Sequence record: NC_028881.1
DNA length: 64,000 nt
Direction: 5' to 3' (one strand)
DNA from: Escherichia phage vb_EcoM-VR5
Shown: positions 15,715 to 61,957 of the stretch, piece by piece
Layout: every line of letters starts with the position of its first letter
How positions within the stretch are numbered: the first letter of the stretch is position 1
The notes under the pieces: generated by a model
What the model was told of the DNA's origin: nothing
The model's input: only the letters and a program-made list of their open reading frames with translations
Database searches by the model: none
Made by a program: the position numbers and the translations under genes

Positions 15715-15744
15715 ATAGTACCACATCCTTGTGGTGTTGTAAAC
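15715..15744 (-). promoter_or_regulatory. early promoter / PeSL-like cassette
   Basis: Minus strand GTTTAC-(18 nt)-TACTAT with inverted repeat; leader identical to the one upstream of alc (32257-32313). Confidence 0.55.
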
Positions 15745-15746
15745 TG

Positions 15747-17795
15747 TTATCTGAATTTTTCCGGAAGGGCATTGATATCAGTCAATGCACACAGGATTTT
15801 ATCAACTTCGTTATCTGAAGCTTCTTTAGATTCTGTAAGGAACCCAGAGAAAGATAATGTTTTGTTTACTGGTTCCAACTTACCGGATTCCAAGAACAAA
15901 TCACCGTCGTAAACTACTTCGCTTTCGGCGACGATACGGTCCAGGTCCATTACTTCACACTCTAACAAGAAACGGTTAAAGGATTTAGACAGGCTAGCCG
16001 TAGTGGTCTTGTTAACTCGCAGTGTAGTACCACGTGGCAACAGAACTTCAGCCTCTTCAGGGTATTCAGACAAACTACCTGGCATAATAACCTTAATCTT
16101 CTCAATACCACGAATAACAAATGAGATATCAATCTTAGAATTACCTTCGGTTTTCAGTGCATTAGTTACTGTCTGGTTAGCATCTTGTGAACGCCAATCA
16201 TCAGAGAATGCATGACCATCAGTATAAGTAGACGAGAAGTCATCTAATGTGATACCCATACCATTGCCGGACATTTGTCCAGGAACGTTACTAAAAATGT
16301 TAGGCTTCAACGAAGTAGAAACATAGTTACGGAAGTAGAATGTACGGCCTGTAATATTGCGACGAAGAGTATTAGAATCACCACCCTGACCACGATAAAC
16401 CGTAGTACCCTTAGGCAAAGTTACACCTTTAGAGAACGCGCTATCAAGTTTCTCAATTTCACCTTCAACAAACTTAATGGAAGTATCCTCATCAGGAGTA
16501 CCAAGCAAGAACGTGTTAATATCATAGAACGAGTTCATACAATATTCTGATACAGCCTGTTTTTCTTCCTTGGTAAGGTCTGCTTCTGGTTCAACGTTCT
16601 GGGCCACTTCATACGAATTGGTAAAAACATCATCAATCATCTGAGTAATAATAGCCATAGGACGTTGAAGAGCCTGGGCCTTAACATCTACATCTACCGA
16701 AGAACCTGCAGTAATTTCACGAACAATTCTTTGCATGATTTCGTACGAGTTTGTAGTATCAAGATTTTTAAATTCTTCAGCCATCAATCTAACGATGTCA
16801 GAAGGGTAATTTCTGGTACGTAGCTTACCTTTAGCTTCGGATAATGCATCCATTAAAGAAGATACTTGAGGTGATAAACCGGAACTAGACGAAATATTAA
16901 TATAAGCCAATTCAGATTGGGTTTTCTTAGCAAAGGTCTTCATAGAGGCTTCAAATGATTCGAATTCTTTAGATTTCTTACCATCTGATTTATATAAAGG
17001 AACTTCGTCATCATACTTAGCAAAGATTTTAGCAGTCTCTGCATCGGCCTCAATATTTTCAGGAGTAACTGCGTATTGAGCCGCAATAGTAGCACGAACG
17101 TTTAATTTAGTACGAGAGATAACAGCCTTATCGGTACGCTTTTCTTCAACCTGCGCTACAGAAGCTACAACGGCTTCAACCTTACTTACGGCTTGGCCAG
17201 TTTTCTTGGAAACATAAACTTCGCCAACTTTAGAATCAACTTTAGTATAAAGGTCAGCATCAATTTCCGGCATGCCTTTGATGTCTTCGATATTCGCACC
17301 ACGACGTACTAAAAGAACGTAAGTATGTTTACCGCTGAACTGGAACATATCATTAACAACTTTAAACTTACCACCTGTACGAGCCATGGCCAAACGAGCC
17401 AATACACGTTGTACAGTAGGACCCTTACCTTTCATTTTCTTAGTAGGGAAACGGAACAGAACTGCATCCATTTTAAGTTTATTTACTTGTTCATATACCG
17501 TATCGAAAATAGTATTCAATGCACCAAGTGGGTCAGAACCAAGTCCACCTTTGAGTTCAGCCGGGGCACCTTTGCTTGACAAACTCATTAGAATAACATG
17601 AACATATTTGTCACCTGGCTTAACCATTTTAACTGCGTCTCCTTGAGACGCATAAGATACCATACGAGCCACAAGGTTATCATTACCTGGTGCTTGGATA
17701 GAGAAAATCTGTGGGATACCGGAACCTGGTTTAAGATTTGTTACTGGATAGTTTTTAGCTGAATCACTATCAAAAACTTCGTTTAAATTTTCCAT
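15747..17795 (-). CDS. alt: Alt-type ADP-ribosyltransferase (paralog A)
   Basis: 682 aa (same as T4 Alt); C-terminal ART motifs present (YRGQ arginine, VSTSL, EAE); N-terminal LNE motif resembling prohead-protease processing sites. Confidence 0.85.
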   Translation of the reverse strand: MENLNEVFDSDSAKNYPVTNLKPGSGIPQIFSIQAPGNDNLVARMVSYASQGDAVKMVKPGDKYVHVILMSLSSKGAPAELKGGLGSDPLGALNTIFDTVYEQVNKLKMDAVLFRFPTKKMKGKGPTVQRVLARLAMARTGGKFKVVNDMFQFSGKHTYVLLVRRGANIEDIKGMPEIDADLYTKVDSKVGEVYVSKKTGQAVSKVEAVVASVAQVEEKRTDKAVISRTKLNVRATIAAQYAVTPENIEADAETAKIFAKYDDEVPLYKSDGKKSKEFESFEASMKTFAKKTQSELAYINISSSSGLSPQVSSLMDALSEAKGKLRTRNYPSDIVRLMAEEFKNLDTTNSYEIMQRIVREITAGSSVDVDVKAQALQRPMAIITQMIDDVFTNSYEVAQNVEPEADLTKEEKQAVSEYCMNSFYDINTFLLGTPDEDTSIKFVEGEIEKLDSAFSKGVTLPKGTTVYRGQGGDSNTLRRNITGRTFYFRNYVSTSLKPNIFSNVPGQMSGNGMGITLDDFSSTYTDGHAFSDDWRSQDANQTVTNALKTEGNSKIDISFVIRGIEKIKVIMPGSLSEYPEEAEVLLPRGTTLRVNKTTTASLSKSFNRFLLECEVMDLDRIVAESEVVYDGDLFLESGKLEPVNKTLSFSGFLTESKEASDNEVDKILCALTDINALPEKFR

Positions 17796-17798
17796 TAT

Positions 17799-19853
17799 TT
17801 ACCCTTGGATGAATTTTTCTGGCATATCATTAAGATTCATACATGATGCTAAAAGAGGTAGTACATCAAACTTAGTTGATTTTACAAATGAGTCAAAAGA
17901 TACAGGGTTTTCGGTAGTATCGAAATCATCTTGATACACAACCAATTCACCGGTTTCCATTAACATGTTTCCATCATATACTACTGACTCTTGAAGCTCA
18001 TCTGATGTCATAACTTCGGCTTGAACTAATTTATTATTAGTTTTAGAAGTACCGTCGTTATAAGAAGCATCTGTTATTTTATTAATTTTGAGCATTAACC
18101 CACGTGGAAGAATAATTTCCATTTCGTTAGAAGGAGCAAGACCTGCACCAGGGAACACCACGTTTATTTTGTGAGCACCTGAAATAGCCCAACCGATACC
18201 AACTTGGTCGTCATTAGACTTAACAAGTCCTTCATCCGATTTGTCTATGGAAACATCTAAACGGACTTCATCAGGCAGAGTACCTACTGAAGCATCTGTC
18301 ATCCAAGTACCAAAAATATTAGGATATAAAGATGTAGATACAAAGTTTCTGAAATAGAATACCTTGTTTTTAACCATTGCTTCGTAAATAGGTGGAATCA
18401 TTTTCTGGGAACGATACAGTGTAATTCCTTCTGGTAATCTATCACCATTTTTAAAAGCATCATCTAAGTTATCAATAGCTTTTTCGATTTCCGGGCCAGT
18501 CAAAATACTAGAACGAACTTCTGGATTGTATATACCTAAAAGTGCATTGTTCATATCTTCATAACCGGAACCAACATACTCACGGATACCACGTTTTTGT
18601 GCTGGAGTATACTGGGTTTCATCTCGGTTATCAACAATAGAGAACATTGTCCAACCGGCAGCCAATGCAAATCCACGAATTTCTTTTTTAATGACCTTAG
18701 TCTTAGCGACGTTCCAAGAGCTTTCAGACAATTCCATGGCTACAGTATAATCTAAATTAGAATGTTTAGCAAAGAATTTTCCTAACCAGGCACCTTTATA
18801 TTCTTCAAGAACTTCGTTTAGTACTGAAGCAAAACTGCTTAATGCATCCATAGACGTTATAGGCTTACCGTGGATTTTTTGGAATGCACGAACTTTAACA
18901 TCATGGTCGACTTCTTTTATTTTGCTTTTAGTTACTATTCCGCTATCGGCAAAGGCATCACCAACACCATTTATATTTGTAACTGTATTAAGAACACTTT
19001 CTAAAGAAAACGATGCGGTAGAAATAGTAGATAATTCGTTAGATTGTGGAATAAGTGGCGCGGTAGCAGGTTTACTTAATTCGGATGCAGAAGCTTCAAA
19101 TTTGGTAAACATAGGTGTTTCAAAACGCGCTGATTCTAAGGATTGCGACATAGCAATAGCACGTCGTGAAATCTTGGTCTTAGTAATAACGGTTTTATCT
19201 GTACGGCGTTCTTCAACCTTAGCAATACTACCTGCAATAGCGGTTTCTTTAGTAACCTGTACACCTTCTTTTTTGCTTACATAAACATCACCAACATCAG
19301 AATCAACTTTAGTATAAAGTTCAGCATTAATTTCTGGAATACCTTTGATGTCTTCAATATTAGCTTGTTTACGGACAACTAAAATATAAGTATGCTTGCC
19401 AGTGAATTCATACATGGCAGGAACTACTTTAAAACGGCCACCAGTTTTCTGTGCAACTAAACGTTGAATAAGGCGCTGTACGATAGGACCTTGTCCTTTC
19501 ATTTTCTTAGTAGGAAAACGGAACATAACCGCGTCCATACGAAGTTTTTTAACTTGCTCGTATACTACATCAAAAATGGTATTAATAGCATCAATAGGAG
19601 TTGCTCCTAAGCCACCTTTTAATTCGGCAGGGGCGCCTTTGGCTGACAGACTCATTAAAATAACGTGAGCATATTTGTCGCCTAATTTAACTTGTTTGAT
19701 AGCATCACCTTCAGATGAATATGACACCATACGTGCTACCAATTGAGACTCAACGCCGCCAATCTTCCAAATCTGTGGTACTTTAAGTTTCGGGTTCAAG
19801 TTTACAGTAGGTAATGTACCTTCAGACTCGAACACTTCATTTAATTGGGTCAT
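17799..19853 (-). CDS. Alt-type ADP-ribosyltransferase (paralog B)
   Basis: 684 aa; N-terminal 230 aa highly similar to paralog A, central region divergent, ART motifs retained (YRSQ, VSTSL, EME). Confidence 0.8.
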   Translation of the reverse strand: MTQLNEVFESEGTLPTVNLNPKLKVPQIWKIGGVESQLVARMVSYSSEGDAIKQVKLGDKYAHVILMSLSAKGAPAELKGGLGATPIDAINTIFDVVYEQVKKLRMDAVMFRFPTKKMKGQGPIVQRLIQRLVAQKTGGRFKVVPAMYEFTGKHTYILVVRKQANIEDIKGIPEINAELYTKVDSDVGDVYVSKKEGVQVTKETAIAGSIAKVEERRTDKTVITKTKISRRAIAMSQSLESARFETPMFTKFEASASELSKPATAPLIPQSNELSTISTASFSLESVLNTVTNINGVGDAFADSGIVTKSKIKEVDHDVKVRAFQKIHGKPITSMDALSSFASVLNEVLEEYKGAWLGKFFAKHSNLDYTVAMELSESSWNVAKTKVIKKEIRGFALAAGWTMFSIVDNRDETQYTPAQKRGIREYVGSGYEDMNNALLGIYNPEVRSSILTGPEIEKAIDNLDDAFKNGDRLPEGITLYRSQKMIPPIYEAMVKNKVFYFRNFVSTSLYPNIFGTWMTDASVGTLPDEVRLDVSIDKSDEGLVKSNDDQVGIGWAISGAHKINVVFPGAGLAPSNEMEIILPRGLMLKINKITDASYNDGTSKTNNKLVQAEVMTSDELQESVVYDGNMLMETGELVVYQDDFDTTENPVSFDSFVKSTKFDVLPLLASCMNLNDMPEKFIQG

Positions 19854-19889
19854 AATAATTCCTCTCTAATAACCTTATTTATGCCATAA

Positions 19890-19903
19890 AGGGCCCGAAG
19901 GCC
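19890..19903 (-). terminator. GC tetraloop hairpin upstream of Alt paralog B
   Basis: gggcc-cgaa-ggccc (UUCG loop in minus-strand RNA) followed by T-rich tract on minus strand. Confidence 0.5.
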
Positions 19904-19907
19904 CATA

Positions 19908-20114
19908 TCAGTATAGTGGAACAATAGGGACTAAAGTTCGATATAGCTCGAAATTATATCCTTTTTCATATTTTGATAACTTTCCTGCAAATACTTCAAA
20001 CTCATCACGCGAGTTGAAATCAAGGATAGTCGTTGTTACAGAGGTAGAAACTTCACCAGAGCCGTTACCACCTTGACGTTGTGCAATAATAACTAATTCT
20101 AAATAAGCTTTCAT
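19908..20114 (-). CDS. hypothetical protein downstream of DNA ligase
   Basis: ORF trimmed to internal ATG (MKAYLELVII...) so that it abuts rather than overlaps the ligase stop; 68 aa. Confidence 0.5.
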   Translation of the reverse strand: MKAYLELVIIAQRQGGNGSGEVSTSVTTTILDFNSRDEFEVFAGKLSKYEKGYNFELYRTLVPIVPLY

Positions 20115-20115
20115 A

Positions 20116-23200: not shown

Positions 23201-23395
23201 TTATCCTCGCTTTAAATATTTGATTACAGACAATTCTTGTCCCATGCGTACGTCTTCAGTTCCGTCAACCCACAGGACTGCATAGGCTTCTTTAATTACT
23301 TTACCGTTAATTTTAAAAGCAGGTAAAACCTTTGAAATCATTCCAGGAATACCTATGCCTTTTAACTGGACTGTTTGTGATAAAAATAATTTCAT
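23201..23395 (-). CDS. hypothetical protein
   Basis: 64-aa ORF preceded by the shared TGAGG junction sequence. Confidence 0.45.
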   Translation of the reverse strand: MKLFLSQTVQLKGIGIPGMISKVLPAFKINGKVIKEAYAVLWVDGTEDVRMGQELSVIKYLKRG

Positions 23396-23402
23396 GTTAG
23401 CC

Positions 23403-23705
23403 TCAATATTTCATTTGGAAGCAACGTGGCTCGTCACATTCAATAAAGAACTTACAGTCTGCAGCAGAAATAATGATTCGCTCATCTTGACGGGCATCTG
23501 TTTTGATAGATTTCATATCATAAGACACGTTATCATCTGGTATATAGATTTTATACACGTCGCCATTATGGGCGAAATCAACACGGAACAGCTCTAGACC
23601 TATTAAATCAGTCACAAGACTGTTTATAGCGTAGAACTCATCAAGCTGACTAGTAGGCAAACAATACCATTTACCTTCAGTAAACTCTAACATAATTAAC
23701 CTCAA
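23403..23705 (-). CDS. hypothetical protein with C-terminal FQMKY
   Basis: 100-aa ORF; its last codons plus stop plus SD are near-identical at DNA level to the 3' end of the upstream gene. Confidence 0.5.
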   Translation of the reverse strand: MRLIMLEFTEGKWYCLPTSQLDEFYAINSLVTDLIGLELFRVDFAHNGDVYKIYIPDDNVSYDMKSIKTDARQDERIIISAADCKFFIECDEPRCFQMKY

Positions 23706-23989
23706 TATTTCATTTGGAAGCCGTATGGCTTAACGTCACCGCCATCCATATTTGATGTATTAATTTCGCTGGCATCAACCATGGAAATATCAACATCATT
23801 GCGCAGTTTAACGATTGCTAGAGTATCGCGACCATTTACAGTGCGGAATTCTAGTGGACAAACTACATCAACATAGTTCTTAATGGAATCGCGTGTTGGT
23901 TCACACCCAGCAGGAACATTAGGGCCTTTTTTAGAGAAAACAACTTCACAGAAATTTTTACGAGTATCGAAATAAGTGGTCATAAACAT
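23702..23989 (-). CDS. hypothetical protein with C-terminal FQMKY
   Basis: 95-aa ORF; shares only the 3' terminal cassette with 23403-23705. Confidence 0.5.
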   Translation of the reverse strand: MFMTTYFDTRKNFCEVVFSKKGPNVPAGCEPTRDSIKNYVDVVCPLEFRTVNGRDTLAIVKLRNDVDISMVDASEINTSNMDGGDVKPYGFQMKY

Positions 23990-24003: not shown

Positions 24004-24019
24004 GGAGGCCGAAGCCTCC
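24004..24019 (-). terminator. GC tetraloop hairpin
   Basis: ggaggc-cgaa-gcctcc; identical 16-mer recurs at 62994-63009. Confidence 0.45.
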
Positions 24020-24862: not shown

Positions 24863-24901
24863 AGATGTACACCCTTTTTTTAAAGATTTAGAAACAAAAA
24901 T

Positions 24902-24919
24902 GGGACTCCGAAGAGTCCC
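24902..24919 (-). terminator. intrinsic terminator hairpin
   Basis: gggactc-cgaa-gagtccc followed on the minus strand by a T-rich tract. Confidence 0.6.
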
Positions 24920-24924
24920 ATAAC

Positions 24925-25086: not shown

Positions 25087-25481
25087 TATAAAATCTCTTT
25101 AAATGAAAATGCAGGACTTATTGGCATTGCCTGCGCAAGCCCTCAAGGGGAACATAGGTTTTGGATATTTAACGACAGGATAACCATAAACCTCGTCATC
25201 ATACTTATAGCTCTTATCTGTTGCACACCGTTAGCTTAAAGGTTCCGGGTTCGATTTCTCGAGGATAAGATATATACTGATGGGTATATAGGCCTTGAGG
25301 CGTACTCCCGATTGGCCATCACCTCGGGGTAGCATGCACTTGCCGCTATAAAATAACATTCAAGAGGTACACCGTAAAACTGCCGGGGTCTTAAAACTAT
25401 AATGATTCTCAAATCATTAATCAGACAGTTCGACGGCTCCTCGATTTTCTAGCCGCACTAAGGTAGCGAATCACCTAAAAC
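25087..25481. other. ORF-free intergenic island with multiple predicted helices (candidate structured RNA or decayed gene)
   Basis: About 390 bp without a credible ORF in an otherwise tightly packed cluster; nested inverted repeats (cctcaagg 25141 / ccttgagg 25293; tcttatc 25213 / gataaga 25264; tatatac 25271 / gtatata 25284). Confidence 0.3.
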
Positions 25482-25730: not shown

Positions 25731-25876
25731 TTTAGTTTCTCAATTCGAGATAAAGATTGGTGGACACGTTCTTCTGAATTTCACTTCCTTTCGGCAAGTC
25801 TCTCAGTTGTAGTCCACCGCTTAGAATTGTTCGGTTAACTTATTATTCCGACACCCAATTCATATTATTATTTATA

Positions 25877-26200: not shown

Positions 26201-26231
26201 ATTTAATCCATGTTGTTTTGTTGATAAGATA

Positions 26232-26256
26232 ATATTATCACATTATTCTTAAAGCA
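26232..26256 (-). promoter_or_regulatory. MotA-box middle promoter-like element upstream of gene 31
   Basis: Minus strand TGCTTTA-(12 nt)-TAATAT; overlaps palindrome gataatattatc. Confidence 0.5.
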
Positions 26257-26258
26257 TA

Positions 26259-27339: not shown

Positions 27340-27677
27340 TACATCACCATGATATAGGCAGATTTATCAGTTTCAACACGATATAATTCATGTCGCAATT
27401 TCGTGATTGATTTAACACGTGAGGTTAATATACCATAACCATCTTTAAAGCGTTTTTTCTTATCAAAGAATACCACGCCTGCTAATGAATTACCGATTTC
27501 AACTGGTAACATAGTCAACAACACGCCATCATAATCAGCTGGGCTAATGCTTTTAAACAAAGTATCATTCATCAACAAAGCCCGGATAAGTTGTATAGCA
27601 CCATCAGAGAGACCGCGATGGTCTCCATCCTTGTCTTCCTGTAATGCAGTGGTAATAGCTTCTACTAAACTAATCAT
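27339..27677 (-). CDS. hypothetical protein
   Basis: 112-aa ORF, start/stop coupled to neighbours. Confidence 0.5.
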   Translation of the reverse strand: MISLVEAITTALQEDKDGDHRGLSDGAIQLIRALLMNDTLFKSISPADYDGVLLTMLPVEIGNSLAGVVFFDKKKRFKDGYGILTSRVKSITKLRHELYRVETDKSAYIMVM

Positions 27678-28800: not shown

Positions 28801-28846
28801 TTCTTTTCTCGCTCAGTTATTGGGGTTATTCAAAGGACCTAGACCC

Positions 28847-28871
28847 ATTATAACATAAAAGTTTTAAAGCA
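28847..28871 (-). promoter_or_regulatory. MotA-box middle promoter-like element
   Basis: Minus strand TGCTTTA-(12 nt)-TATAAT; 22-nt core aggacctagacccattataaca identical to 884-905. Confidence 0.5.
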
Positions 28872-40753: not shown

Positions 40754-40805
40754 CATTAAATGCCAAAAAGGGAAGACCGAAGTCTTCCCATTATAAATCA
40801 ATAAC

Positions 40806-41815: not shown

Positions 41816-42445
41816 TCATGTTAAGCATTTTAATTTAATAAACTCAGGGTCTTCATTAGGAATCCATCCTTTATTAAATTGCTTAATCATACTTTTAGCT
41901 GTTGTTTCGCTAACAGAAATACCGGAACCTATAAGACGGCGCCAGCCACACGTTCTTCCTTGTGAATTTATTATAATATATTTATTATAAGCAATATCAC
42001 TAAGCTTCCAATCATTAGGATTTGCTCTAGAAGTTTTCCAAGGGCGATAATCAGGTTGATTCATGTAATTAGAAGCTTTCATATTAGCTCTAACTTCAGG
42101 GCGTTTAGCCGGATGGGTATGTCCGAAGACTCCAAATCCTCCGCCAGCATAAACCAAATTAAAATAATCATCGTTATCTCTAGCTTGAACTTTCAATTGT
42201 TCAGAACGTTCAATATTGATAACAATATCAAATGGCGTTATAGCCAAAATTTCGACAATAGGCTTTTCTTCTTCAATGGCTCTTTTAAATCTAGGCTGTT
42301 CGCAAGAAGTCCAGTACTCTTTACCTTTACAATCAAACATTACACCATTTTCAAAAGTACAATTAGTTTTAGAACCTATATATAAAAATGGTTTAATGTT
42401 ATTACTTTGCCTCTTAGGCCATAGCATTTTATATACTATATTCAA
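41816..42445 (-). CDS. putative homing endonuclease (SegG position; weak GIY-YIG-like N-terminus)
   Basis: 209-aa basic ORF between 59 and 32; N-terminus IVYKM...(11 aa)...LYIGSKT loosely fits GIY...YIG spacing. Confidence 0.45.
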   Translation of the reverse strand: MNIVYKMLWPKRQSNNIKPFLYIGSKTNCTFENGVMFDCKGKEYWTSCEQPRFKRAIEEEKPIVEILAITPFDIVINIERSEQLKVQARDNDDYFNLVYAGGGFGVFGHTHPAKRPEVRANMKASNYMNQPDYRPWKTSRANPNDWKLSDIAYNKYIIINSQGRTCGWRRLIGSGISVSETTAKSMIKQFNKGWIPNEDPEFIKLKCLT

Positions 42446-55904: not shown

Positions 55905-56102
55905 TTATTCATAATGTGCAATTACCTCTCTTAAACATCCACCTGTAAGACTGAAACGCTTGGCTACCCCACACTCAATGATATGTTCTGAAAGCATATT
56001 CATATCAGTATAACCCAGCTCGACGATGAAGTATTTTATAGTTTCCTTATCACGAGAATTTAAACTATTGAAATACTCTGATTTTGAATTAAGAGTCTTC
56101 AT
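55905..56102 (-). CDS. hypothetical protein (arn region)
   Basis: 65-aa ORF. Confidence 0.45.
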   Translation of the reverse strand: MKTLNSKSEYFNSLNSRDKETIKYFIVELGYTDMNMLSEHIIECGVAKRFSLTGGCLREVIAHYE

Positions 56103-56364
56103 GTAATTTCCTTAATTGATATTCTAAAGAGCTAATAATTTCTTTATTAGTTGCTATATACATATCACGTAGGAATGGCTTAAGGCCTTCCATATTCCCA
56201 TGAATGGTCTTAGAACTAATATTCTTTATATATTCATGGTCTAAAGCGTCCCATGCCGGTTGGTTGACATAAGTACCCCAGTTATCTTCCATCATAGCAT
56301 TCAGGCGTTTGATATGATTAATGTGGGCTTCAATAGCATCAATCTGGAGTTGTTTAAGATTCAT
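56089..56364 (-). CDS. hypothetical protein (arn region)
   Basis: 91-aa ORF. Confidence 0.5.
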   Translation of the reverse strand: MNLKQLQIDAIEAHINHIKRLNAMMEDNWGTYVNQPAWDALDHEYIKNISSKTIHGNMEGLKPFLRDMYIATNKEIISSLEYQLRKLHEDS

Positions 56365-56861: not shown

Positions 56862-57178
56862 CCTTTAACACGTTGCCAGAGGCTTTTCTGTTGAGCTTTA
56901 TTGACACCAATCGAGCGAATAACCGGTTGTGATTCCTGGTATTCTTTATAGTCTGCCATATATACTTCATAAGCCGCTGGAACAAAGGTGCTGATAGCAG
57001 CCATAAAGTTTTTACGGATTCCCATAGAGGCTTCAGAACCACCACGGATGATTAAATATTTACCTGCTTTAACCTTGACGATAGTTCCAAGATAAGCACC
57101 GTGATACCAAATGTCCCAACCTTCTTGAGTAGGTTCTGCACAACGACGAAGTTCATTAACAATATTCAGCTTGTTCAT
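56849..57178 (-). CDS. hypothetical protein
   Basis: 109-aa ORF directly downstream of motA. Confidence 0.5.
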
Positions 57179-57196
57179 AATAATTTCCTCAGTCAG

Positions 57197-57829
57197 TTAA
57201 ATTGCGTTAGTTACGGTTTTGATAACTTCAGATGATACGTTTTGGAAGTCAATATAAGTATTCTTACCACCAGTCTTAATCTTAACATCAAGGTTCAAGG
57301 ATGTAAACACTTGTTTTTCTTTATCAGTCATATTATAACCGAAGATGCGCATCATTCCATCACGGCGAACTTCAATTTGACGAATACCGTTGGTACGTTT
57401 TGCGAATCGAACTTCAAGATTACTACGGTTTTCAGCGATTTCACGAATCTCAATACGTTCTTCTAACAAAGCTTTGACTTCATCAGCCAGTGCCACCATT
57501 TCAGGAGTAACACCACGTGAACTGCGTGTTTTACGTTTTTCCAACATCTCTGGGGCATTTTCAGAAGCGAACAAATCAGCAGCTTTTTGAACAAGGTCCA
57601 TTGCTTCACCTGTAGCTACTAAACCATCACCTGATTTTTCGATGAATCCTTTCTTAATCAATACACCAATGTTAGAGTTAACTACCGCAGCACTAAATTG
57701 CTCACTCAGGGCTTCACGGACTTCGCCTGAAGTGATAAAGTTATGCTTGATGATATGTACTAAGATCGAAGCAGTTTTTTCATTCAGGGCGTCTTCAGAA
57801 GCTTTGATGATATAAGTAATTTTAGACAT
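57197..57829 (-). CDS. motA: middle-transcription activator MotA
   Basis: 210 aa; matches T4 MotA (MSK.TYIIKAS.D.LNEKTA.IL, AEVRE, VVNSNIGVLIKKG..EKSGDGL..TGEA, EKRTNGIR, MRIFGY.M). Confidence 0.9.
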   Translation of the reverse strand: MSKITYIIKASEDALNEKTASILVHIIKHNFITSGEVREALSEQFSAAVVNSNIGVLIKKGFIEKSGDGLVATGEAMDLVQKAADLFASENAPEMLEKRKTRSSRGVTPEMVALADEVKALLEERIEIREIAENRSNLEVRFAKRTNGIRQIEVRRDGMMRIFGYNMTDKEKQVFTSLNLDVKIKTGGKNTYIDFQNVSSEVIKTVTNAI

Positions 57830-57863
57830 TTTAATCTCCGATAACCATTTATTTGATAGGTCT

Positions 57864-57892
57864 ATAGTATCATGTTTAAAGCATAAGTAAAC
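57864..57892 (-). promoter_or_regulatory. early promoter / PeSL-like cassette upstream of motA
   Basis: Minus strand GTTTAC-(17 nt)-TACTAT; 40-nt block identical to the cassette at 58188. Confidence 0.6.
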
Positions 57893-57933
57893 TTTATTTT
57901 GAGCTCTTTTTCAAGAGCCCTGGTAAAAATTAC

Positions 57934-58167
57934 TTAGATTGATAGGTCTTTAATCTTGGCTATTAAAACAGCTTTTCCTTCACGAAGTTTTTCCAGTTCA
58001 CGACCATTAGGGCCGCGAACTACTAAGGAATTTATCTCTACTTCCATCCAATTTAGTTTTTCAACTAGTTCTTTACGTTTAGCATTCATGCCGGGTTTAA
58101 CTTTACCGAAACGGATGGTAGCGTTTTGGGTATTTTTCATCTTATTCATTTTGTATCTCCATTTCAC
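57934..58167 (-). CDS. hypothetical basic protein (motA.1 position)
   Basis: 77-aa ORF between two identical promoter cassettes. Confidence 0.5.
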   Translation of the reverse strand: MKWRYKMNKMKNTQNATIRFGKVKPGMNAKRKELVEKLNWMEVEINSLVVRGPNGRELEKLREGKAVLIAKIKDLSI

Positions 58168-58187
58168 TCTGTTGTTTTGATAGGTCT

Positions 58188-58216
58188 ATAGTATCATGTT
58201 TAAAGCATAAGTAAAC
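58188..58216 (-). promoter_or_regulatory. early promoter / PeSL-like cassette
   Basis: Minus strand GTTTAC-(17 nt)-TACTAT; tttgataggtctatagtatcatgtttaaagcataagtaaac identical to 57853-57892. Confidence 0.6.
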
Positions 58217-58240
58217 ACTTTTTGCACTAAACCCAAAAAA

Positions 58241-58256
58241 GGAACCCTAAGGTTCC
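58241..58256. terminator. hairpin with flanking A/T runs, likely bidirectional terminator downstream of gene 52
   Basis: aaaaaa-ggaacc-ctaa-ggttcc-ttacttttt. Confidence 0.55.
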
Positions 58257-58357
58257 TTACTTTTTAAAGTGAGCTGCTATTAAACCTATAGCTAGACCTG
58301 TTGCCAGGCCTAGAATAACGGCAAAGATGCAGAGTAACAAGAACTCTACTCCGAAGC

Positions 58358-59737
58358 TCATAGAGCCTCCAAATCTTTAGCATACTCAGTTACAACATCA
58401 GTGGTTTTCCAGTATTGGTGCTCTTCTTTTTTAGCCTTGGCTTCCAAAGCCAGTTTCTTGGCTTCGTCAGATGTGATGTGGAAAATATTCATTGCCACTA
58501 GTTTGTCAGCGTATTCACCATAGACTTTATTACTAGCCAATTCCTCAGTTAAAACTTTGCGAGTTTTACCTTGGATAACTACTACACCATCAATAACATC
58601 TTTAATGAATGTGGCTTTAGCCAGTGCCAGTTTAAATGCCTGTTCGGTTTCGATGATTTTACCATCAATACGTTTTTGTACAAAGGTCTTACGGACCTCA
58701 ACGAAATCACGAATCAGTTCAACTGCATCTTCGTAAACCTTGAGCTTACCTTTCTCATTAATAACTGTCAAGTTTTGTGAACGACGTTCGATTAACCCGA
58801 AGTCCTTCATAATTTTTTCGTGCTTCTTATTTTCTTCAGTAGGTAATTCGTATTCTTTACGAATTTTTACCTTGAAGCCGAAACCATTCTCATCACAGTC
58901 GTCATCATACGTGATATAGCCCTTATCTTCTAGAGGGTCCAGCACCTTAGCCACGTATGTTTCACGGTCGTATTTGTATGGGATTTCTGTGATATGCATT
59001 TGGGTTCGGGATGTGAACTTATACGTACCACGTAGTTCATAACTTCCAGGTTCAATCTCAATCACGTCTCCGCGGAATTCCGGGTAAGCCACTTTAGGCT
59101 TAGTTACGCGTTTTTCTTGAAGAACCTGCAATACAGCTTTCTTAACAGAATCAAAACTATGAGGAAGAATATTAGTTGCATAACCAGTTGCAATACCGGA
59201 AATACCATTAAGAAGAACAGTAGGAATAATAGGCAGATAAAAAGCTGGTGGCTTATGTTCGACGTCCGCATGAACCGGCGCATATTCTGTATCCTTATAA
59301 ACCTTTGCGAAATTAGTTCCAATCCGCGCGAAAATATAACGAGATGCCGCAGCCTTTTGAACTAAACGAGAACCGAAGTTACCTTGACCATCTAACAATG
59401 GGAAGTTATTGTTCCATGTGTTGGCCATCAAAGCCCCAGCTTCCTGGGCAGAGCCTTCACCGTGGTGGTATCCAAGGTCGGCTACACCACCTGCAATAGA
59501 AGCCAGTTTGTGGAATTTTTCTTTATTACCACGGGCCATATCAAGACATCGAGCAACTACAAAACGTTGTACAGGTTTAAAGCCATCAATCATATTTGGA
59601 ATGGCGCGGTTTTCGACAGTATACATTGCGTAAGCCAGCGCTTCATTGTCGATAATGCTTTTTAAGTCACGACGAGTAAAAGCATCATCGTAAACATCTA
59701 AGGCTTGTTTAAAAAGAGTATCAATTACATCAGCCAT
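58358..59737 (-). CDS. 52: DNA topoisomerase II medium subunit gp52
   Basis: 459 aa; GyrA-like N-terminal region (NRAIPNMIDGFKPVQRFV, active-site Tyr region) in the T4 gene 52 position. Confidence 0.85.
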   Translation of the reverse strand: MADVIDTLFKQALDVYDDAFTRRDLKSIIDNEALAYAMYTVENRAIPNMIDGFKPVQRFVVARCLDMARGNKEKFHKLASIAGGVADLGYHHGEGSAQEAGALMANTWNNNFPLLDGQGNFGSRLVQKAAASRYIFARIGTNFAKVYKDTEYAPVHADVEHKPPAFYLPIIPTVLLNGISGIATGYATNILPHSFDSVKKAVLQVLQEKRVTKPKVAYPEFRGDVIEIEPGSYELRGTYKFTSRTQMHITEIPYKYDRETYVAKVLDPLEDKGYITYDDDCDENGFGFKVKIRKEYELPTEENKKHEKIMKDFGLIERRSQNLTVINEKGKLKVYEDAVELIRDFVEVRKTFVQKRIDGKIIETEQAFKLALAKATFIKDVIDGVVVIQGKTRKVLTEELASNKVYGEYADKLVAMNIFHITSDEAKKLALEAKAKKEEHQYWKTTDVVTEYAKDLEAL

Positions 59738-59741
59738 AATT

Positions 59742-59882
59742 TTACCATACTAGTGAATGAATAACCATAATAACATCGGAAATAAAAAGCACAACTTGGA
59801 TAAGCCCGAATATTACTCCATAATACAGTGCTACCAATAAAGCAGCAAGGGCTAACGAGTAGCCCAGGATTTGTTTAATCAT
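59742..59882 (-). CDS. small hydrophobic membrane protein
   Basis: 46-aa ORF (MIKQILGYSLALAALLVALYYGVIFGLIQVVLF...), one predicted TM span; below ORF-track cutoff. Confidence 0.4.
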   Translation of the reverse strand: MIKQILGYSLALAALLVALYYGVIFGLIQVVLFISDVIMVIHSLVW

Positions 59883-60043
59883 TTCTTGACCAATGCTTCC
59901 AGAAATTTAACGATTGCATCAATTACGAACCAAGTGCAAATAAATCCAACAGCGAAAGGACCTGGAACCCACACACCAGCAGCAAAAAGGGATACCCACA
60001 CAATAACAATCACGAGCCAGATAAAAGTATAAATCGGTTGCAT
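59879..60043 (-). CDS. small hydrophobic membrane protein
   Basis: 54-aa ORF (MQPIYTFIWLVIVIVWVSLFAAGVWVPGPFAVGFIC...), ATGA-overlap coupled to the downstream ORF. Confidence 0.4.
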   Translation of the reverse strand: MQPIYTFIWLVIVIVWVSLFAAGVWVPGPFAVGFICTWFVIDAIVKFLEALVKK

Positions 60044-60050
60044 AATTTCC

Positions 60051-60230
60051 TCACTTAATAAAACCTACCAAACCGCAAATACGTTCAAAACTAATGAAAG
60101 CTACACACCACGCTATCACAGTACCAACATTATCATTCAATGGTAAATCCAGTGACATAAAGGTCGCCAGGCCGATTAATACAGTTAAAGCCATAATAAT
60201 CAGGTGGCCCATTAAAAAGAAATTTTTCAT
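60051..60230 (-). CDS. small hydrophobic membrane protein
   Basis: 59-aa ORF (MKNFFLMGHLIIMALTVLIGLATFMSLDLPL...), abuts ndd stop. Confidence 0.4.
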   Translation of the reverse strand: MKNFFLMGHLIIMALTVLIGLATFMSLDLPLNDNVGTVIAWCVAFISFERICGLVGFIK

Positions 60231-60231
60231 A

Positions 60232-60681
60232 TTAATAGCTCTGTAGGATGAATTTAAAGTTATCAGCCAACATACGGTTCATTTCTTCCAGCGTCTGGAG
60301 GTCTGAACTATGATTACGAGTGAAAGCCATTGCAATTTGGCCTTTACCAAAACCTGTAGTCAGAGGTTTCATTTTAGAAGCCGGTACATAAAGAACTTCA
60401 TACAGAACATTGTTAGTTTTCATGGTACGGTTGGCTTGAGAACGAGCTGAACGAATATTCTTAAGAACACCATCCAGACCTTGTCCTGAGCGCTGGTTAC
60501 CTACATAGAAGCGAGCAGCTACGATACGGTTTTCACCAACACCTTTAACAAAGAAATAGAAGCCTGGTTGGGCTGCCGTTTCTTTAGAAGGCCGGCCAAT
60601 TTTGTATTCGCCATTCATAACGTAAGCAACGGTAGTAGCACCAGCGGACAGAACGTTACGGCGAGTCATATAAGTAGTCAT
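60232..60681 (-). CDS. ndd: nucleoid disruption protein Ndd
   Basis: 149 aa; C-terminal half near-identical to T4 Ndd ([56 protein letters not shown]). Confidence 0.9.
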
Positions 60682-60730
60682 ATCAATTTCCTCAGTAGAT
60701 TAATGTTTTGTTATCCAGTCAACGAGAACC

Positions 60731-60759
60731 ATTATAACATGATTCTCGAGGTTGTAAAC
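60731..60759 (-). promoter_or_regulatory. early promoter upstream of ndd
   Basis: Minus strand GTTTAC-(17 nt)-TATAAT overlapping inverted repeat cgagaa...ttctcg. Confidence 0.6.
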
Positions 60760-61100
60760 TATTTTTGTAGCTGTTCTAAAATAAATCCAGACGTATAATA
60801 AGTAGCATTATAAACCTTATTAAGAGGGTTCAAAGCACGTCCGTAGGTATCACGCAATTCTTTGATGACGTTTTCATAACTTACATAGAAAGCGCTGCGA
60901 TAGTCGGGGTCCATGCTCATACGGAATTTGATGAATCGATAGAAGCCTGTTTCAGGGTCTTGAATGAAAACAAAATCAGAACTCATCACAGTTTTTAGTT
61001 GTAACCCTGGAATCTGTCCTTGATTACATAACGATGCGTCTTGAAGGCTGAGCTGTTTAAAGAACATCACCTTAGAGTTACCAAAAAAGACTTTAGACAT
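60759..61100 (-). CDS. hypothetical protein (ndd.x position)
   Basis: 113-aa ORF. Confidence 0.5.
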   Translation of the reverse strand: MSKVFFGNSKVMFFKQLSLQDASLCNQGQIPGLQLKTVMSSDFVFIQDPETGFYRFIKFRMSMDPDYRSAFYVSYENVIKELRDTYGRALNPLNKVYNATYYTSGFILEQLQK

Positions 61101-61114
61101 AATATTTTCCTCAA

Positions 61115-61408
61115 TTATTCAGGGTCTACAGCGCCATCCCATGGGTCAACTTCTTCAGATGATTCCATAAGTTCATCAACTGTAAAGCACTCGGTATTAT
61201 TTTCAATAGCAAAACGTTTTTGATAAAAAGGATAATCCAAACAATTTTCAGTACGTACAGGACGTTCACTAGAATCCATCAGAGGAGAAATACGAATCAG
61301 CTGCTGACCGTTACTAAGAACAAATTTCTCACCAACTTCAACGTCTTTAAAAAGTTTCATAATGTTATCCTCAGAAGAAATAGTTAAAGTATACACGTAC
61401 ATGGTCAA
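61115..61408 (-). CDS. hypothetical acidic protein
   Basis: 97-aa ORF. Confidence 0.5.
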   Translation of the reverse strand: MTMYVYTLTISSEDNIMKLFKDVEVGEKFVLSNGQQLIRISPLMDSSERPVRTENCLDYPFYQKRFAIENNTECFTVDELMESSEEVDPWDGAVDPE

Positions 61409-61513
61409 TCATAAAAGCGATTGGGAAAATGCATAATACCATAAACAGAATAAACATGTTCCAAATAGCTTTAAGTAACTTTTTCATAATCATCTCCATT
61501 AGTTGATAGGTCT

Positions 61514-61542
61514 ATAGTATCATGTCTAATGGAGATGTAAAC
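61514..61542 (-). promoter_or_regulatory. early promoter / PeSL-like cassette
   Basis: Minus strand GTTTAC-(17 nt)-TACTAT with inverted repeat catctccatt...aatggagatg. Confidence 0.55.
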
Positions 61543-61632
61543 TGTTTTATGCAAGTTTTAACAACAATAAACTGAAGCATACACAAATAATTGGAATACA
61601 CAACATCCAGATAAGGCACCACATTTTGCTGC

Positions 61633-61938
61633 TCAAAATATCACCTCTTTGATTTCAATCAATCCATCAGACAATGCGGTGCGGAGGTCATAAAGAATAT
61701 CTATACCATCAATATTGTCCAGCTTACCATCAATAAGCTTTTTTAAATCACGCTTTGAGGCAACTAGTGGGCGAAGAAATTTACAATCAGAAAGAGATAA
61801 CTCTGTAGTAACATCATCACCATCACCTGACGCATCATACATAGCGGCAACAACCATACCTGTAACTTTGTGTTTGGCGTAGTATAATTTAATATCCATT
61901 TTGTTTTCCTCTCGTAGTTGATAGGAAGATAGTAACAC
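61633..61938 (-). CDS. hypothetical protein
   Basis: 101-aa ORF downstream of a promoter cassette. Confidence 0.5.
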   Translation of the reverse strand: MLLSSYQLREENKMDIKLYYAKHKVTGMVVAAMYDASGDGDDVTTELSLSDCKFLRPLVASKRDLKKLIDGKLDNIDGIDILYDLRTALSDGLIEIKEVIF

Positions 61939-61957
61939 CGTCCTTGGTGTATGTAAA
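61928..61957 (-). promoter_or_regulatory. early promoter / PeSL-like cassette (diverged copy)
   Basis: Minus strand GTTTAC-(18 nt)-TACTAT; core gataggaagatagtaac. Confidence 0.45.

Follow-up and report, generated by a model that had tools for sequence, protein, structure and literature searches.

The repeated elements on the minus strand of the window, the whole 64,000-nucleotide stretch analysed here, are by their sequence strong early promoters of a T4-type, JS98-like coliphage and belong to a kind of element that is already known. It is likely that these early promoters double as linkers for recombination and as insulators that would limit translation to promoter-proximal transcripts, a reading in three layers. 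The window, running from gene 24 to rIIB, makes up the last 64 kb of the genome of a Dhakavirus, a T4-type coliphage like JS98, and the Dhakavirus genomes ESCO10, JS98, JS10 and IME08 are colinear with it at 88-94% nucleotide identity. In the first layer, the elements would act as sigma-70-dependent T4-type early promoters fused to a short 5'UTR with the Shine-Dalgarno sequence (SD) of the first gene, each cassette opening a putative early transcription unit, as suggested by the agreement of sequence and position with T4.

A position-weight matrix scan of the window identified 17 sites on the minus strand, with no further sites on that strand and none on the plus strand. All of them lie on the early-gene strand in the correct orientation 5' of an early gene and share the anatomy GTTTAC-N17/18-(TGn)TAnnAT, followed by an SD and an ATG at a distance of 26-49 nt. 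The -35 hexamer is exactly GTTTAC in 14 sites and carries a single mismatch in the other three; a GTTTAC-like -35, a spacer of 17±1 nt and a TAnnAT hexamer are present in 17/17, and the extended -10 TGn in 16/17. The consensus additionally includes an A-rich, UP-like tract 5' of the -35 (A.AaAa) and a CCTAYCAA box around +1, and it spans about 46 bits across the 17 aligned sites. Only 18.4 of its 45.9 bits fall in the two hexamers and 27 lie outside them, so that in multiple alignment the copies match well beyond the hexamers.

A first-pass annotation had reported about a dozen copies between 15715 and 61957, and its 12 sites are real: each coordinate coincides with the -10 hexamer of a promoter-like site on the minus strand (for 61928, with an offset of one base) with the layout GTTTAC (GTGTAC or TTTTAC in two), 17-18 nt, TAnnAT, SD and ATG. 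The count itself was too low, the total being 17; the sites with a -35 G at 1196, 31024, 44662, 55659 and 60759 were absent from that list, the first of them lying outside its range. The proposal that the copies bracket most of the small ORFs did not hold, as cassettes head only 16 of about 72 early genes (22% of early gene junctions), and most of them precede T4 orthologues (alt.-3, 30.7, 30.8, alc, frd.1/.2/.3, rnh, asiA, motA and ndd). In the list below, each cassette is named P plus the coordinate of its -35 G (e.g., P1196); the 5' arm of a hairpin is promoter spacer and its 3' arm lies either just past the -10 (type I) or over the SD (type II).

P1196, 1135..1196, minus strand: 5' of a gp24.3-like ORF; -35 at 1196-1191, -10 at 1172-1167, ATG at 1137; type II hairpin over the SD, arms 1181-1173 / 1152-1143, duplex -12.5 kcal/mol.
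P15744, 15684..15744, minus strand: 5' of alt.-3; -35 at 15744-15739, -10 at 15720-15715; small hairpin within the spacer, CCACA..TGTGG.
P24466, 24391..24466, minus strand: 5' of 30.7; -35 TTTTAC; type I hairpin TTTGGTACAGGT/ACCTGTACCAAA flanking the -10, -20.1 kcal/mol, MFE z=-3.3.
P24872, 24800..24872, minus strand: 5' of 30.8; -35 GTGTAC; type II stem UCUCCGGU/ACUGGAGA over the SD.
P28519, 28459..28519, minus strand: 5' of an orf212-like gene; type I hairpin GGTAGGACT/AGTCCTACC flanking the -10, -17.4 kcal/mol.
P31024, 30958..31024, minus strand: -10 TATAAT; type I hairpin GGGAGCA/TGCTCC flanking the -10, z=-2.4.
P32313, 32254..32313, minus strand: 5' of alc; type II hairpin AUCUCCUCAUG/CAUGAGGAGA, spacer arm 32307-32291, SD arm 32278-32261.
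P39779, 39721..39779, minus strand: 5' of frd.1; type I stem AGGCTAT/ATAGCCT around the -10, z=-2.3.
P40067, 40007..40067, minus strand: 5' of frd.3; in the group with an identical 23-nt core; no significant stem.
P40753, 40694..40753, minus strand: 5' of frd.2; identical-core group.
P44662, 44600..44662, minus strand: 5' of rnh, divergent from late gene 34.
P55659, 55578..55659, minus strand: 5' of asiA; -35 GTGTAC; type I stem AGAATA/TATTCT around the -10.
P57892, 57827..57892, minus strand: 5' of motA; 41-nt exact repeat of P58216.
P58216, 58147..58216, minus strand: 5' of a 71-aa ORF (phrog_6200, function unknown).
P60759, 60679..60759, minus strand: 5' of ndd; -10 TATAAT; type I stem CGAGAATC/GGTTCTCG around the -10, z=-2.0, -11.6 kcal/mol.
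P61542, 61485..61542, minus strand: 5' of a 38-aa ndd.4-like ORF; identical-core group; type II hairpin CAUCUCCAUUAG/CUAAUGGAGAUG over the SD, z=-5.1, -19.2 kcal/mol.
P61958, 61897..61958, minus strand: 5' of an orf262-like gene; spacer hairpin ACACC..GGTGT.

These sites agree with published descriptions of the T4 early promoters (PMC1524935, PMC2988021) in GTTTAC, the 17-18 nt spacer, TGn, TAnnAT, the A-rich upstream tract, the C-rich bases before +1 and the position directly 5' of early genes. Promoters of the same form precede the T4 orthologues alt.-3, 30.7, 30.8, alc, rnh (at 150763, just 5' of the gene) and motA and also occupy the cd.2-cd.3 gap, where the T4 record places the early promoter Pe133295 in a stretch of gene order matching P28519. 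The Dhakavirus copies differ from the T4 promoters in favouring TACTAT and a CATGA-TACTAT-AGACCTATCAA core.

The inverted repeats of the cassettes are real. A stem embracing the -10 was found in 10 of the 17 cassettes, a hairpin inside the spacer in two and an upstream hairpin in four. P24872 is counted both for its upstream hairpin and for its embracing stem, and neither P40067 nor P44662 has any of these. Pairing between a spacer and its own downstream sequence averaged -10.8 kcal/mol, compared with -7.0 kcal/mol for mismatched partners (permutation p<2e-5), and the same cognate-pairing test gave p=0.0005 in T4, p=0.004 in a Mosigvirus and p=0.008 in a Kanagawavirus. An overlapping inverted repeat had been ascribed to every copy; it is strong in about 10/17, and of the five copies with the greatest identity four show it weakly or not at all. 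Because those four cassettes are without a meaningful hairpin, the repeat property and the hairpin property are partly separate.

The promoter sits between the two arms. Transcription is expected to start some 7 nt past the -10, and the 5' arm, in the spacer upstream of the -10, precedes this start; the hairpin would therefore form only on RNA reading through from an upstream promoter. In the third layer, spacer sequence complementary to the sequence downstream of the -10 (about 10/17 cassettes) would place a 3' arm over the SD in four cassettes and possibly six, predicted for P1196, P24872, P32313 and P61542 and, less strongly, for P44662 and P61958. The predicted probability that the SD is unpaired was 0.09 on read-through RNA vs. 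0.52 on the own transcript for P1196, 0.27 vs. 0.82 for P24872, 0.11 vs. 0.56 for P32313 (whose hairpin has z=-3.9 and -20.7 kcal/mol) and 0.00 vs. 0.59 for P61542, and mean predicted SD accessibility was 0.44 vs. 0.64 (Wilcoxon p=0.001). The ORF with the gp24.3-like product, 30.8, alc and the ndd.4-like ORF would therefore be translated from their own immediate-early transcript and not from read-through RNA. In many cassettes, a conserved hairpin thus probably hides the following gene's ribosome-binding site on read-through RNA, an insulation step that we infer from geometry, predicted accessibility, covariation and analogy to T4 e, soc, 49 and I-TevI. In other cassettes the stem just brackets the -10, with attenuation, a pause or RNA-end structure as candidate roles. 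Neither the reach of several 3' arms over the downstream SD nor the covariation of the pairing across genera had been noticed in the first-pass annotation.

The pairing recurs beyond the window, in part with altered bases. In the P1196 stem, the window's TCCC:GGGA corresponds to TTCT:AGAA in JS98 and to TTCTC:GAGAA in IME08, changes that are compensatory; the P24466 stem is also present in T4 and a Mosigvirus, and the counterparts of the P28519 stem in T4 (GGTAGAGTT/AGCTCTACC) and a Mosigvirus (GGTGGAGTT/AACTCTACC) differ from it by compensatory pairs, as read by eye. Across diverse T4-like phages, a duplex of -15 kcal/mol or lower was found in 19 of 23 distinct alc promoters vs. 5% of the distant non-cognate pairs; among the 19 are at least three whose stem flanks the -10 and does not cover the SD. 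In eight sequences chosen for aligning in register, the 14-bp alc helix was 94.6% paired with four pairs altered on both sides, compared with only 31-53% and 0-1 double-changed pairs in slid controls. An SD-covering stem was absent from the Mosigvirus alc promoters and from one other. Judging from these alignments, compensatory changes have maintained the SD-covering alc helix across T4-like genera. That T4-like phages broadly have many early promoters built inside such a spacer:SD hairpin, as a general and evolutionarily maintained insulator, is a tentative extension that we put at somewhat below an even chance.

The stem-loops could alternatively be transcription terminators or attenuators that shield the cassettes from upstream transcription, as in the original papers on promoter-early stem-loop (PeSL) elements, which we hold to be unlikely. 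An RB49 PeSL stem-loop cut lacZ expression as much as rrnB T1 did (PMC2839356), the outcome would equal that of the insulator reading in leaving the downstream gene dependent on its own promoter, and just upstream of P24872, P40753 and P58216 there is in each case a canonical hairpin followed by a T-run. These three belong to the four separate hairpins upstream of cassettes:

24900..24921, minus strand: canonical terminator hairpin, ATGGGACTCTTCGGAGTCCCAT then TTTTT; upstream of P24872.
40770..40789, minus strand: terminator hairpin, GGGAAGACTTCGGTCTTCCC then TTTTT; upstream of P40753.
57901..57921, minus strand: stem-loop, GAGCTCTTGAAAAAGAGCTC, with no clear U-tract; upstream of P57892.
58239..58258, minus strand: terminator hairpin, AAGGAACCTTAGGGTTCCTT then TTTT; after gene 52 and upstream of P58216.

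Only the hairpins at 24921-24900, 40789-40770 and 58258-58239 combine a GC-rich stem with a U-tract, as expected of an intrinsic terminator. No T-run, judged by eye, follows any of the stems that embrace the -10, so these are not classical terminators; their loops are 10-25 nt long, and the 3' arm of the type II stems tracks the SD exactly, which a terminator would have no reason to do.

Turning to the second layer, recombination between copies, the resemblance among the cassettes is due mostly to the long shared promoter consensus, with longer identity confined to subsets. The copies had been described as near-identical, which fits those with exact runs of 41 nt (P57892/P58216, including identical 17-nt spacers), 32 nt (P15744/P32313, in the 5'UTR) and 23-29 nt (among P40067, P40753, P57892, P58216 and P61542); the rest share the extended consensus only. 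Likewise, the core GATAGGTCTATAGTATCATG given as common to all copies occurs five times exactly and once with three mismatches (0.02 expected from shuffles), and five sites have a 23-nt core in common. Genome comparison shows that homologous recombination between copies with 23-41 nt of exact identity, including spacer bases unconstrained by promoter function, has deleted, replaced or inserted intervening ORFs and has converted promoter/UTR modules between distant loci.

The motA-52 locus offers the clearest comparison. The window has P58216, an ORF and P57892; ESCO10 has a single cassette (deletion), JS10 an unrelated ORF between the same two cassettes (replacement) and IME08 three cassettes (insertion). 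All three changes are bounded exactly by the repeated promoters with junctions within the shared core, and P57892 is the crossover partner in each. At the 30.7/30.8 locus, JS10 is without 30.7 and 30.8, the deletion junction lying inside P24872, and in IME08 the 30.8 coding sequence has been replaced between P24466, its left boundary, and P24872, inside which the replacement ends. Elsewhere, the upstream edge of P15744 is the boundary of a 1.35-kb replaced alt segment in 4/4 relatives, JS98 and JS10 have a replacement of the ORF downstream of P31024 that is bounded by the 3' edge of the cassette, and the replacement of the frd.2 coding sequence in IME08 ends 13 nt from P40753. At several loci a promoter resembles a non-orthologue more closely than its own orthologue: the JS98 and JS10 cores at the P40753 locus are closer to P40067 than to P40753, and the IME08 orthologue of P40067 has a motA-type spacer. 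A different promoter core is found at the orthologue of P28519 in IME08 and at the P55659 locus in JS10 and IME08, the module CACCAAGGACGGTG of P61958 recurs at the IME08 orthologue of P28519, and in T4 the promoters of alt.-3 and alc, although almost the same as one another, are unlike the window pair P15744/P32313. From these sequences, several copies are similar enough to have recombined, swapping genes between them, and recombination between cassettes that deletes, inserts or exchanges intervening ORFs is seen at motA-52 and 30.7/30.8.

These events make up a minority of the changes in gene content. Eight of 28 early-region indels (29%) touch a cassette, vs. 2.9 expected under uniform placement (p=0.007), and the other 20 have no cassette at either end, one of them being a homing-endonuclease gene. 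Compared with gene junctions, there was no enrichment of indels at cassettes (29% of indels vs. 22% of junctions), and most indels either involve a homing endonuclease or fall at junctions that have no promoter and are translationally coupled. The share of indels explained by the PeSL mechanism is only about one quarter. The proposed modular shuffling, for which a comparison of flanking gene content with related genomes had been suggested as a check, is thus seen in the four Dhakavirus genomes as cassette crossovers at the motA-52 and 30.7/30.8 loci, with most indels arising elsewhere.

That the copies are promoters only, alike solely through a long T4-type consensus and taking no part in recombination, appears distinctly unlikely to us. 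The size of the shared consensus (45.9 bits), its presence in T4 and other genera, the additional consensus regions beyond the standard promoter elements reported in reviews (PMC2988021) and the 20 indels that avoid cassettes would all be expected if this were so, as would the absence of enrichment over gene junctions. Promoter function, however, does not need the identical 17-nt spacers of P57892 and P58216 or the 32-nt UTR shared by distant cassettes; the junctions of the ESCO10 deletion, JS10 replacement and IME08 insertion lie in the shared core, and cores have been swapped between genomes at orthologous positions.

It is very unlikely that the inverted repeats act as DNA, either as recombination-stimulating cruciforms or hairpins (e.g., endonuclease VII targets) or as dyads for an early-promoter shut-off protein. 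The PeSL authors speculated on a stem-binding protein (PMC2839356), the mechanism of early-promoter shut-off is unexplained in the literature (PMC2988021, PMC3014915), and the wobble statistics are compatible with selection on DNA, the counts of G:U vs. A:C pairs being too few to separate RNA-level from DNA-level selection. However, the stem sequences are wholly different between promoters and genera with pairing preserved, which speaks against one sequence-specific protein binding them all; cruciform extrusion is disfavoured by loops of 20-25 nt, and the cassettes that most clearly recombine (P57892/P58216) have no stem. That a dedicated recombinase or nuclease moves the cassettes as autonomous mobile elements is hardly credible, since, despite modules that recur at different loci and genera (e.g., GGTAGGACT..AGTCCTACC at P28519 and in the alc promoter of the phages L044 and L047), there is no associated recombinase, target-site duplication or terminal repeat, the junctions lie within shared homology, and the sole clearly mobile insert nearby is the homing-endonuclease gene, which has no cassette.

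The reading of the cassettes as promoters that also serve as linkers and insulators can be set against two known systems. PeSL elements, which consist of an AT-rich region, a sigma-70-type promoter, a stem-loop, an SD and an ATG (PMC2839356, PMC4122927), have been described in RB49/phi1, T4/PST and KVP40/nt-1 (Arbiol 2010, PMC2839356; Comeau 2014, PMC4122927), and PeSL-like sequences of JS98 were already mentioned in 2010 (PMC2839356). The resemblance to PeSL elements noted in the first-pass annotation stands for this anatomy, which the window cassettes share, and for the crossovers inside cassettes at indels and replacements; a terminator role is not evident from the sequence of stems around the -10. 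The placement of stems, either between the -35 and -10 or overlapping the -10, is that of RB49/phi1. Unlike the PeSL stems, those of the window are not G4..C4 and have no U-tracts, and several pair with the SD; searching the 2010 PeSL paper (PMC2839356) for translation or sequestration turned up nothing. Additionally, most window cassettes precede conserved T4 orthologues and not ORFans, and most indels here do not involve cassettes. In the second system (T4 e, soc, 49 and I-TevI), long transcripts fold the SD into a helix whose arms enclose a promoter, and this nested promoter is late (or middle), delaying translation (PMC3014915). The predicted window helices likewise bury the SD on long RNA, and the own transcript is without the 5' arm; the nested promoter here is a sigma-70 early one and not a late (gp55) one. 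The window hairpins would be a variant of this principle and not a member of the described set, and no description of a spacer:SD insulator at early promoters was found in the papers searched.

Overall, the result adds one Dhakavirus to the phages with T4-type early promoters and PeSL cassettes, and the two 41-nt promoter repeats 5' of motA provide a clean natural case of deletion, replacement and insertion. The PeSL model is tempered at the same time, as gene-content differences in these regions mostly arise outside the cassettes. The covarying spacer:SD helix offers a testable reason for the conservation of a supposedly unconstrained spacer and suggests how T4-type phages may tie translation (e.g., of alc) to one transcript class; where promoters or leaders are reused in engineered phages, spacer and SD would have to be regarded as coupled. 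If the general insulator is true, such genes would be translated only from the immediate-early transcript and be silent on delayed-early or middle read-through RNA, which would carry the e/soc/49/I-TevI principle over from late promoters to early ones and could add to the abrupt fall in the synthesis of some early proteins after early-promoter shut-off.

Across the window, nucleotide identity to Dhakavirus (JS98-like, T4-type) coliphages is 88-94%, with vB_EcoM_ESCO10 as the nearest relative and matches to about 365 GenBank records. The window and the final 64 kb of JS98, JS10, IME08, and ESCO10 are colinear from gene 24 to rIIB. Gene names were taken from JS98; the ESCO10 annotation is shifted, unreliable, and unusable for names, its record (L001/L002, OM386655.1) carrying product names out of step with the genes (nrdA as 'thioredoxin', alt.-3 as 'endonuclease V'). 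Early and middle genes occupy two regions:

15.4-44.7 kb, minus strand: region 1, with alt, 30.x, cd, pseT, alc, nrd, td, frd, 32, 59, and rnh
55.3-64 kb, minus strand: region 2, with asiA, motA, 52, ndd, denB, and rIIB

The first-pass annotation had described about a dozen near-identical early promoter and stem-loop cassettes here. All 12 of its coordinates fall on the -10 hexamer of a minus-strand promoter-like site, in which GTTTAC (or a one-mismatch variant) is followed after 17-18 nt by TAnnAT and then by a Shine-Dalgarno (SD) sequence and ATG 26-49 nt on; the quoted core, a 20-mer, occurs exactly five times versus 0.02 expected. The dozen are real but an undercount: a loose pattern search followed by a two-block weight matrix recovered 17 minus-strand sites, and the same matrix found none on the plus strand of the window. 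The cassettes (early promoter, short 5' UTR with SD, and ATG) are named by the coordinate of the -35 G, and those added by the pattern and matrix scan are:

1196, minus strand: P1196, upstream of a gp24.3-like ORF
31024, minus strand: P31024
44662, minus strand: P44662, upstream of rnh
55659, minus strand: P55659, upstream of asiA
60759, minus strand: P60759, upstream of ndd

The information common to the 17 copies amounts to 45.9 bits, of which the two hexamers give only 18.4; the copies therefore do align beyond the -35 and -10 hexamers, the rest of the shared information residing in an A-rich upstream tract, TGn (16/17), and a start-spanning CCTAYCAA box. Near-identity holds for subsets but not for the whole set, exact shared runs being confined to P57892/P58216 (upstream of motA and a 71-aa ORF; 41 nt), P15744/P32313 (alt.-3 and alc; 32 nt), and the group of P40067 (frd.3), P40753 (frd.2), P57892, P58216, and P61542 (an ndd.4-like gene), with runs of 23-29 nt. 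Generic scans were uninformative, with 54 promoter-like sites versus 56.9 in shuffles for sigma-70 and 13 terminator-like sites versus 13.6; the latter scan was useful solely for a terminator at 24921-24900.

Judged by their consensus, the sites are T4-type early promoters. In the T4 consensus, GTTTAC lies at -36 to -31 and is accompanied by an UP-like A tract; the -10 is preceded by a GT-rich stretch containing TGn, and +1 by C-rich bases (PMC1524935). Hinton describes T4 early promoters as the UP/-35/TGn/-10 type with additional consensus regions (PMC2988021). In the homologous 50 kb of T4, the promoters of the window form that the same pattern detects include those in the cd.2-cd.3 gap and ahead of alt.-3, 30.7, 30.8, alc, rnh, and motA; the T4 record itself lists Pe133295 as an early promoter of the cd.2-cd.3 gap, which in gene order corresponds to P28519 (upstream of an orf212-like gene).

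The elements are of a known kind, already mentioned in passing for JS98. The original definition of promoter-early stem-loops (PeSLs), from RB49/phi1, combines an AT-rich tract, early promoter, stem-loop, SD, and ATG, with the stem-loop mostly over the -10 or between the -35 and -10, and with recombination between copies leading to indels and mini-circles (PMC2839356); the concept was later widened to T4/PST and KVP40/nt-1 (PMC4122927). A different promoter form, AAAAAGGGGTGTACAAGCCCCTTC, lies ~60-90 nt upstream of alc in three IMG/VR loci (L038, L040, and L050); its G4..C4 stem encloses a -35-like GTGTAC and resembles the RB49/phi1 PeSL type. The earlier reading of the window sites as early promoters of PeSL type was largely right, with their uniformity and coverage overstated: the proposal that most of the small unknown-function ORFs lie between such sites was too strong, since 16 of ~72 early genes are headed by a cassette and most of these have T4 orthologues.

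Of the early-region intergenic gaps of at least 55 nt, nearly all are occupied by a cassette from the set of 17. Among the exceptions, two contain MotA-box middle promoters and others contain hairpins; the rIII-flanking gaps and the gap preceding gene 32 contain no cassette, MotA-box promoter, or hairpin. Other intergenic features were as follows:

26201-26258, minus strand: gap without early cassette; MotA-box-like middle promoter ATGCTTTAAG..TAATAT, whose start-region box, CTTATCAAC, is also that of the early cassettes
28801-28871, minus strand: gap without early cassette; MotA-box-like middle promoter AATGCTTTAAA..TATAAT
24004-24019 and 62994-63009, minus strand: identical UUCG-tetraloop hairpin GGAGGCTTCGGCCTCC, directly 5' of the SD upstream of 30.6 and denB.1, respectively; a second kind of repeated intergenic element
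25087-25481 and 25731-25876, minus strand: unusually long non-coding gaps flanking rIII, with no Rfam or tRNA matches; 25204-25347, within the first, is replaced in ESCO10 and IME08

The overlapping inverted repeat attributed to the copies was recovered by folding as a stem enclosing the -10 in about 10 of the 17 cassettes, but a real stem is absent from four of the five most identical cassettes, so that sequence identity and hairpin are separable. Six cassettes have MFE z-scores in the range -2.0 to -2.4, and another three reach -3.3, -3.9, and -5.1. When each spacer was paired with its own downstream region versus those of the other 16, a control that keeps composition and shared motif, the mean duplex was -10.8 kcal/mol for cognate versus -7.0 kcal/mol for mismatched pairs (permutation p<2e-5), and duplexes of -12 kcal/mol or stronger were formed by 7/17 cognate versus 5% of non-cognate pairs. 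The stems fall into two types:

Type I, 3' arm beginning immediately after the -10: P24466 (30.7), P28519, P31024, P39779 (frd.1), P55659, P60759
Type II, 3' arm over the SD: P1196, P24872 (30.8), P32313, P61542

By eye, no T-run follows the -10-enclosing stems, and separate canonical terminators occur only upstream of P24872, P40753, and P58216. Rfam (gathering thresholds) and tRNA scans of the whole window gave no matches, placing the hairpins in no curated RNA family.

The cognate versus non-cognate test gave p=0.0005 in T4 (n=8), p=0.004 in a Mosigvirus (n=7), and p=0.008 in a Kanagawavirus (n=5). For the alc promoter, six genomes and 29 IMG/VR loci supplied 23 distinct sequences; in most of the 23, the SD region is complementary to the spacer stretch immediately following GTTTAC, with sequences that differ by lineage:

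Arms of the alc stem (5' arm in the spacer; 3' arm in the SD region)
Window: 5' UCUCCUCAUG; 3' CAUGAGGAGA
T4: 5' AAGUCCCUCGUGUU; 3' AACAUGAGGACUU
Kanagawavirus: 5' CUCCAUUUCGUU; 3' AACGAAAUGGAG
Klebsiella phage: 5' CCUCGUUUGUU; 3' AACAAACGAGG
Gelderlandvirus: 5' AUCUCCGUUUAGUU; 3' AACUAAACGGAGAU

In an alignment-free test, a duplex of -15 kcal/mol or stronger was formed by 19/23 cognate versus 5% of distant non-cognate pairs, a count that takes in any spacer-downstream stem, at least three of the 19 being type I. A MAFFT alignment of all 23 promoters left the 3' arms out of register from loop indels, and column-based pair counting was therefore confined to an in-register subset of eight. Within this subset, the 14-bp helix is 94.6% paired, with four pairs changed on both sides (12 cells), versus 31-53% paired and 0-1 such pairs when the partner was slid by 1-3 columns; because the eight sequences were picked for alignability, the covariation count is illustrative rather than unbiased. 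The exceptions at alc are two Mosigvirus sequences with a hairpin inside the spacer instead and one sequence without a stem, and a few have a type I stem, including a GGTAGGACT..AGTCCTACC module that is that of window P28519. Type I stems covary as well, with three versions, compared by eye, at the P28519 position:

Window: GGUAGGACU/AGUCCUACC
T4: GGUAGAGUU/AGCUCUACC
Mosigvirus: GGUGGAGUU/AACUCUACC

Hairpin covariation is evidence for the overlapping inverted repeat as a selected structure that would couple the promoter spacer to the SD.

All mechanistic steps beyond the sequence and comparative evidence are ones that we infer. With the 5' arm placed upstream of the -10, RNA from the cassette's own promoter could not contain it, and the stem would form only in RNA reading through from an upstream promoter. 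Partition-function folding predicted SD accessibilities in read-through versus own transcripts of 0.09 vs 0.52 for P1196, 0.27 vs 0.82 for P24872, 0.11 vs 0.56 for P32313, and 0.00 vs 0.59 for P61542, and means of 0.44 vs 0.64 over all 17 cassettes (Wilcoxon p=0.001). T4 read-through (delayed-early/middle) RNA arises by extension of early transcripts (PMC2988021). We infer a restriction of alc, 30.8, and a few small ORFs to immediate-early translation, in which these genes would be translated from immediate-early transcripts only. The architecture is known from T4: at e, soc, 49, and I-TevI, an SD-sequestering hairpin contains a late promoter (PMC3014915), whereas the nested promoter in the window is early. 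The PeSL paper (PMC2839356) makes no mention of translation or sequestration, and a literature search found no description of early promoters inside SD-sequestering stems, although older T4 literature may mention such. For the type I stems, attenuation, pausing, or RNA-end structure is possible. Action of the hairpins at the DNA level is less likely, given that the loops are long and a common stem sequence is completely absent; the alc G:U and A:C counts (2 vs 2) are too few to separate RNA- from DNA-level selection.

On comparison of the genomes, the motA-52 interval is a textbook case of recombination between PeSL cassettes. In the window and JS98 the order is terminator, P58216, 71-aa ORF, stem-loop, P57892, motA; ESCO10 has no ORF and a single cassette that aligns to both window copies, JS10 has the same two cassettes with an unrelated ORF between them, and IME08 has three cassettes and two ORFs. 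The nine motA loci sampled in IMG/VR are too few for a broad survey. Elsewhere, JS10 lacks 30.7 and 30.8; one junction falls within P24872, between its -10 and +1, and the other at the 30.6 SD. In IME08 the 30.8 coding sequence is replaced precisely between P24466 and P24872. As aligned, the promoter cores themselves are mosaic across Dhakavirus genomes: the core differs in IME08 at P28519 and in JS10 and IME08 at the asiA promoter, and at the P40753 position the JS98 and JS10 cores are closer to P40067 than to their own orthologue. P15744 and P32313, 16.5 kb apart, have a 32-nt UTR in common, and in T4 the alt.-3 and alc promoters match each other almost completely from end to end but differ from the window pair, a pattern that we read as conversion-driven concerted evolution.

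When BLAST alignments to the four relatives were chained, the early regions showed 28 distinct indels or replacements. A cassette lies within 25 nt of one or both boundaries in eight events (both in three), versus 2.9 expected under uniform placement (p=0.007). A cassette is present at 22% of early gene junctions, and an event with two junction boundaries would touch one ~39% of the time; there is therefore no excess of cassette-touching events (8/28) over gene junctions in general. The 20 non-cassette events form three groups: insertions of ORFs where genes adjoin tightly and no promoter intervenes (23395-23710, 27340-27674, and 55906-56099), divergent segments inside genes such as alt, and a single homing-endonuclease gene between 32 and 59. 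Two inserted ORFs had PHROGs family matches, and a Pfam search of the inserted small ORFs, that at 41816-42445 included, gave no matches:

41816-42445, minus strand: 209-aa ORF between genes 32 and 59, homing-endonuclease family phrog_7504 (E=7e-112); absent from ESCO10, JS98, JS10, and IME08; T4 carries SegG at this position
55905-56102, minus strand: Arn-like 65-aa ORF, anti-restriction family phrog_4452 (E=1.5e-33); in the window and ESCO10, not JS98, JS10, or IME08; inserted at a promoter-less junction

Two further variable segments were observed:

1288-3417, plus strand: 2.2-kb segment beside the hoc region, encoding a 433-aa protein with collagen triple-helix repeats (PF01391, E=4e-36) and also holding a 272-aa ORF whose Ig-like match is weak; absent from JS98, replaced in JS10 and IME08; boundary at the upstream edge of P1196
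15747-19853, minus strand: alt present as two paralogues in tandem; in the first, the 3' part (15758-17107) is replaced by comparison with each of the four relatives, with further divergent patches at 18119-18310 and 18479-19153

Cassette recombination is real here, yet it is one of several shuffling routes. What this analysis adds is a natural and clean series of recombinants at motA, covariation evidence for the spacer-SD coupling, and a quantitative limit on the share of shuffling that cassettes explain.
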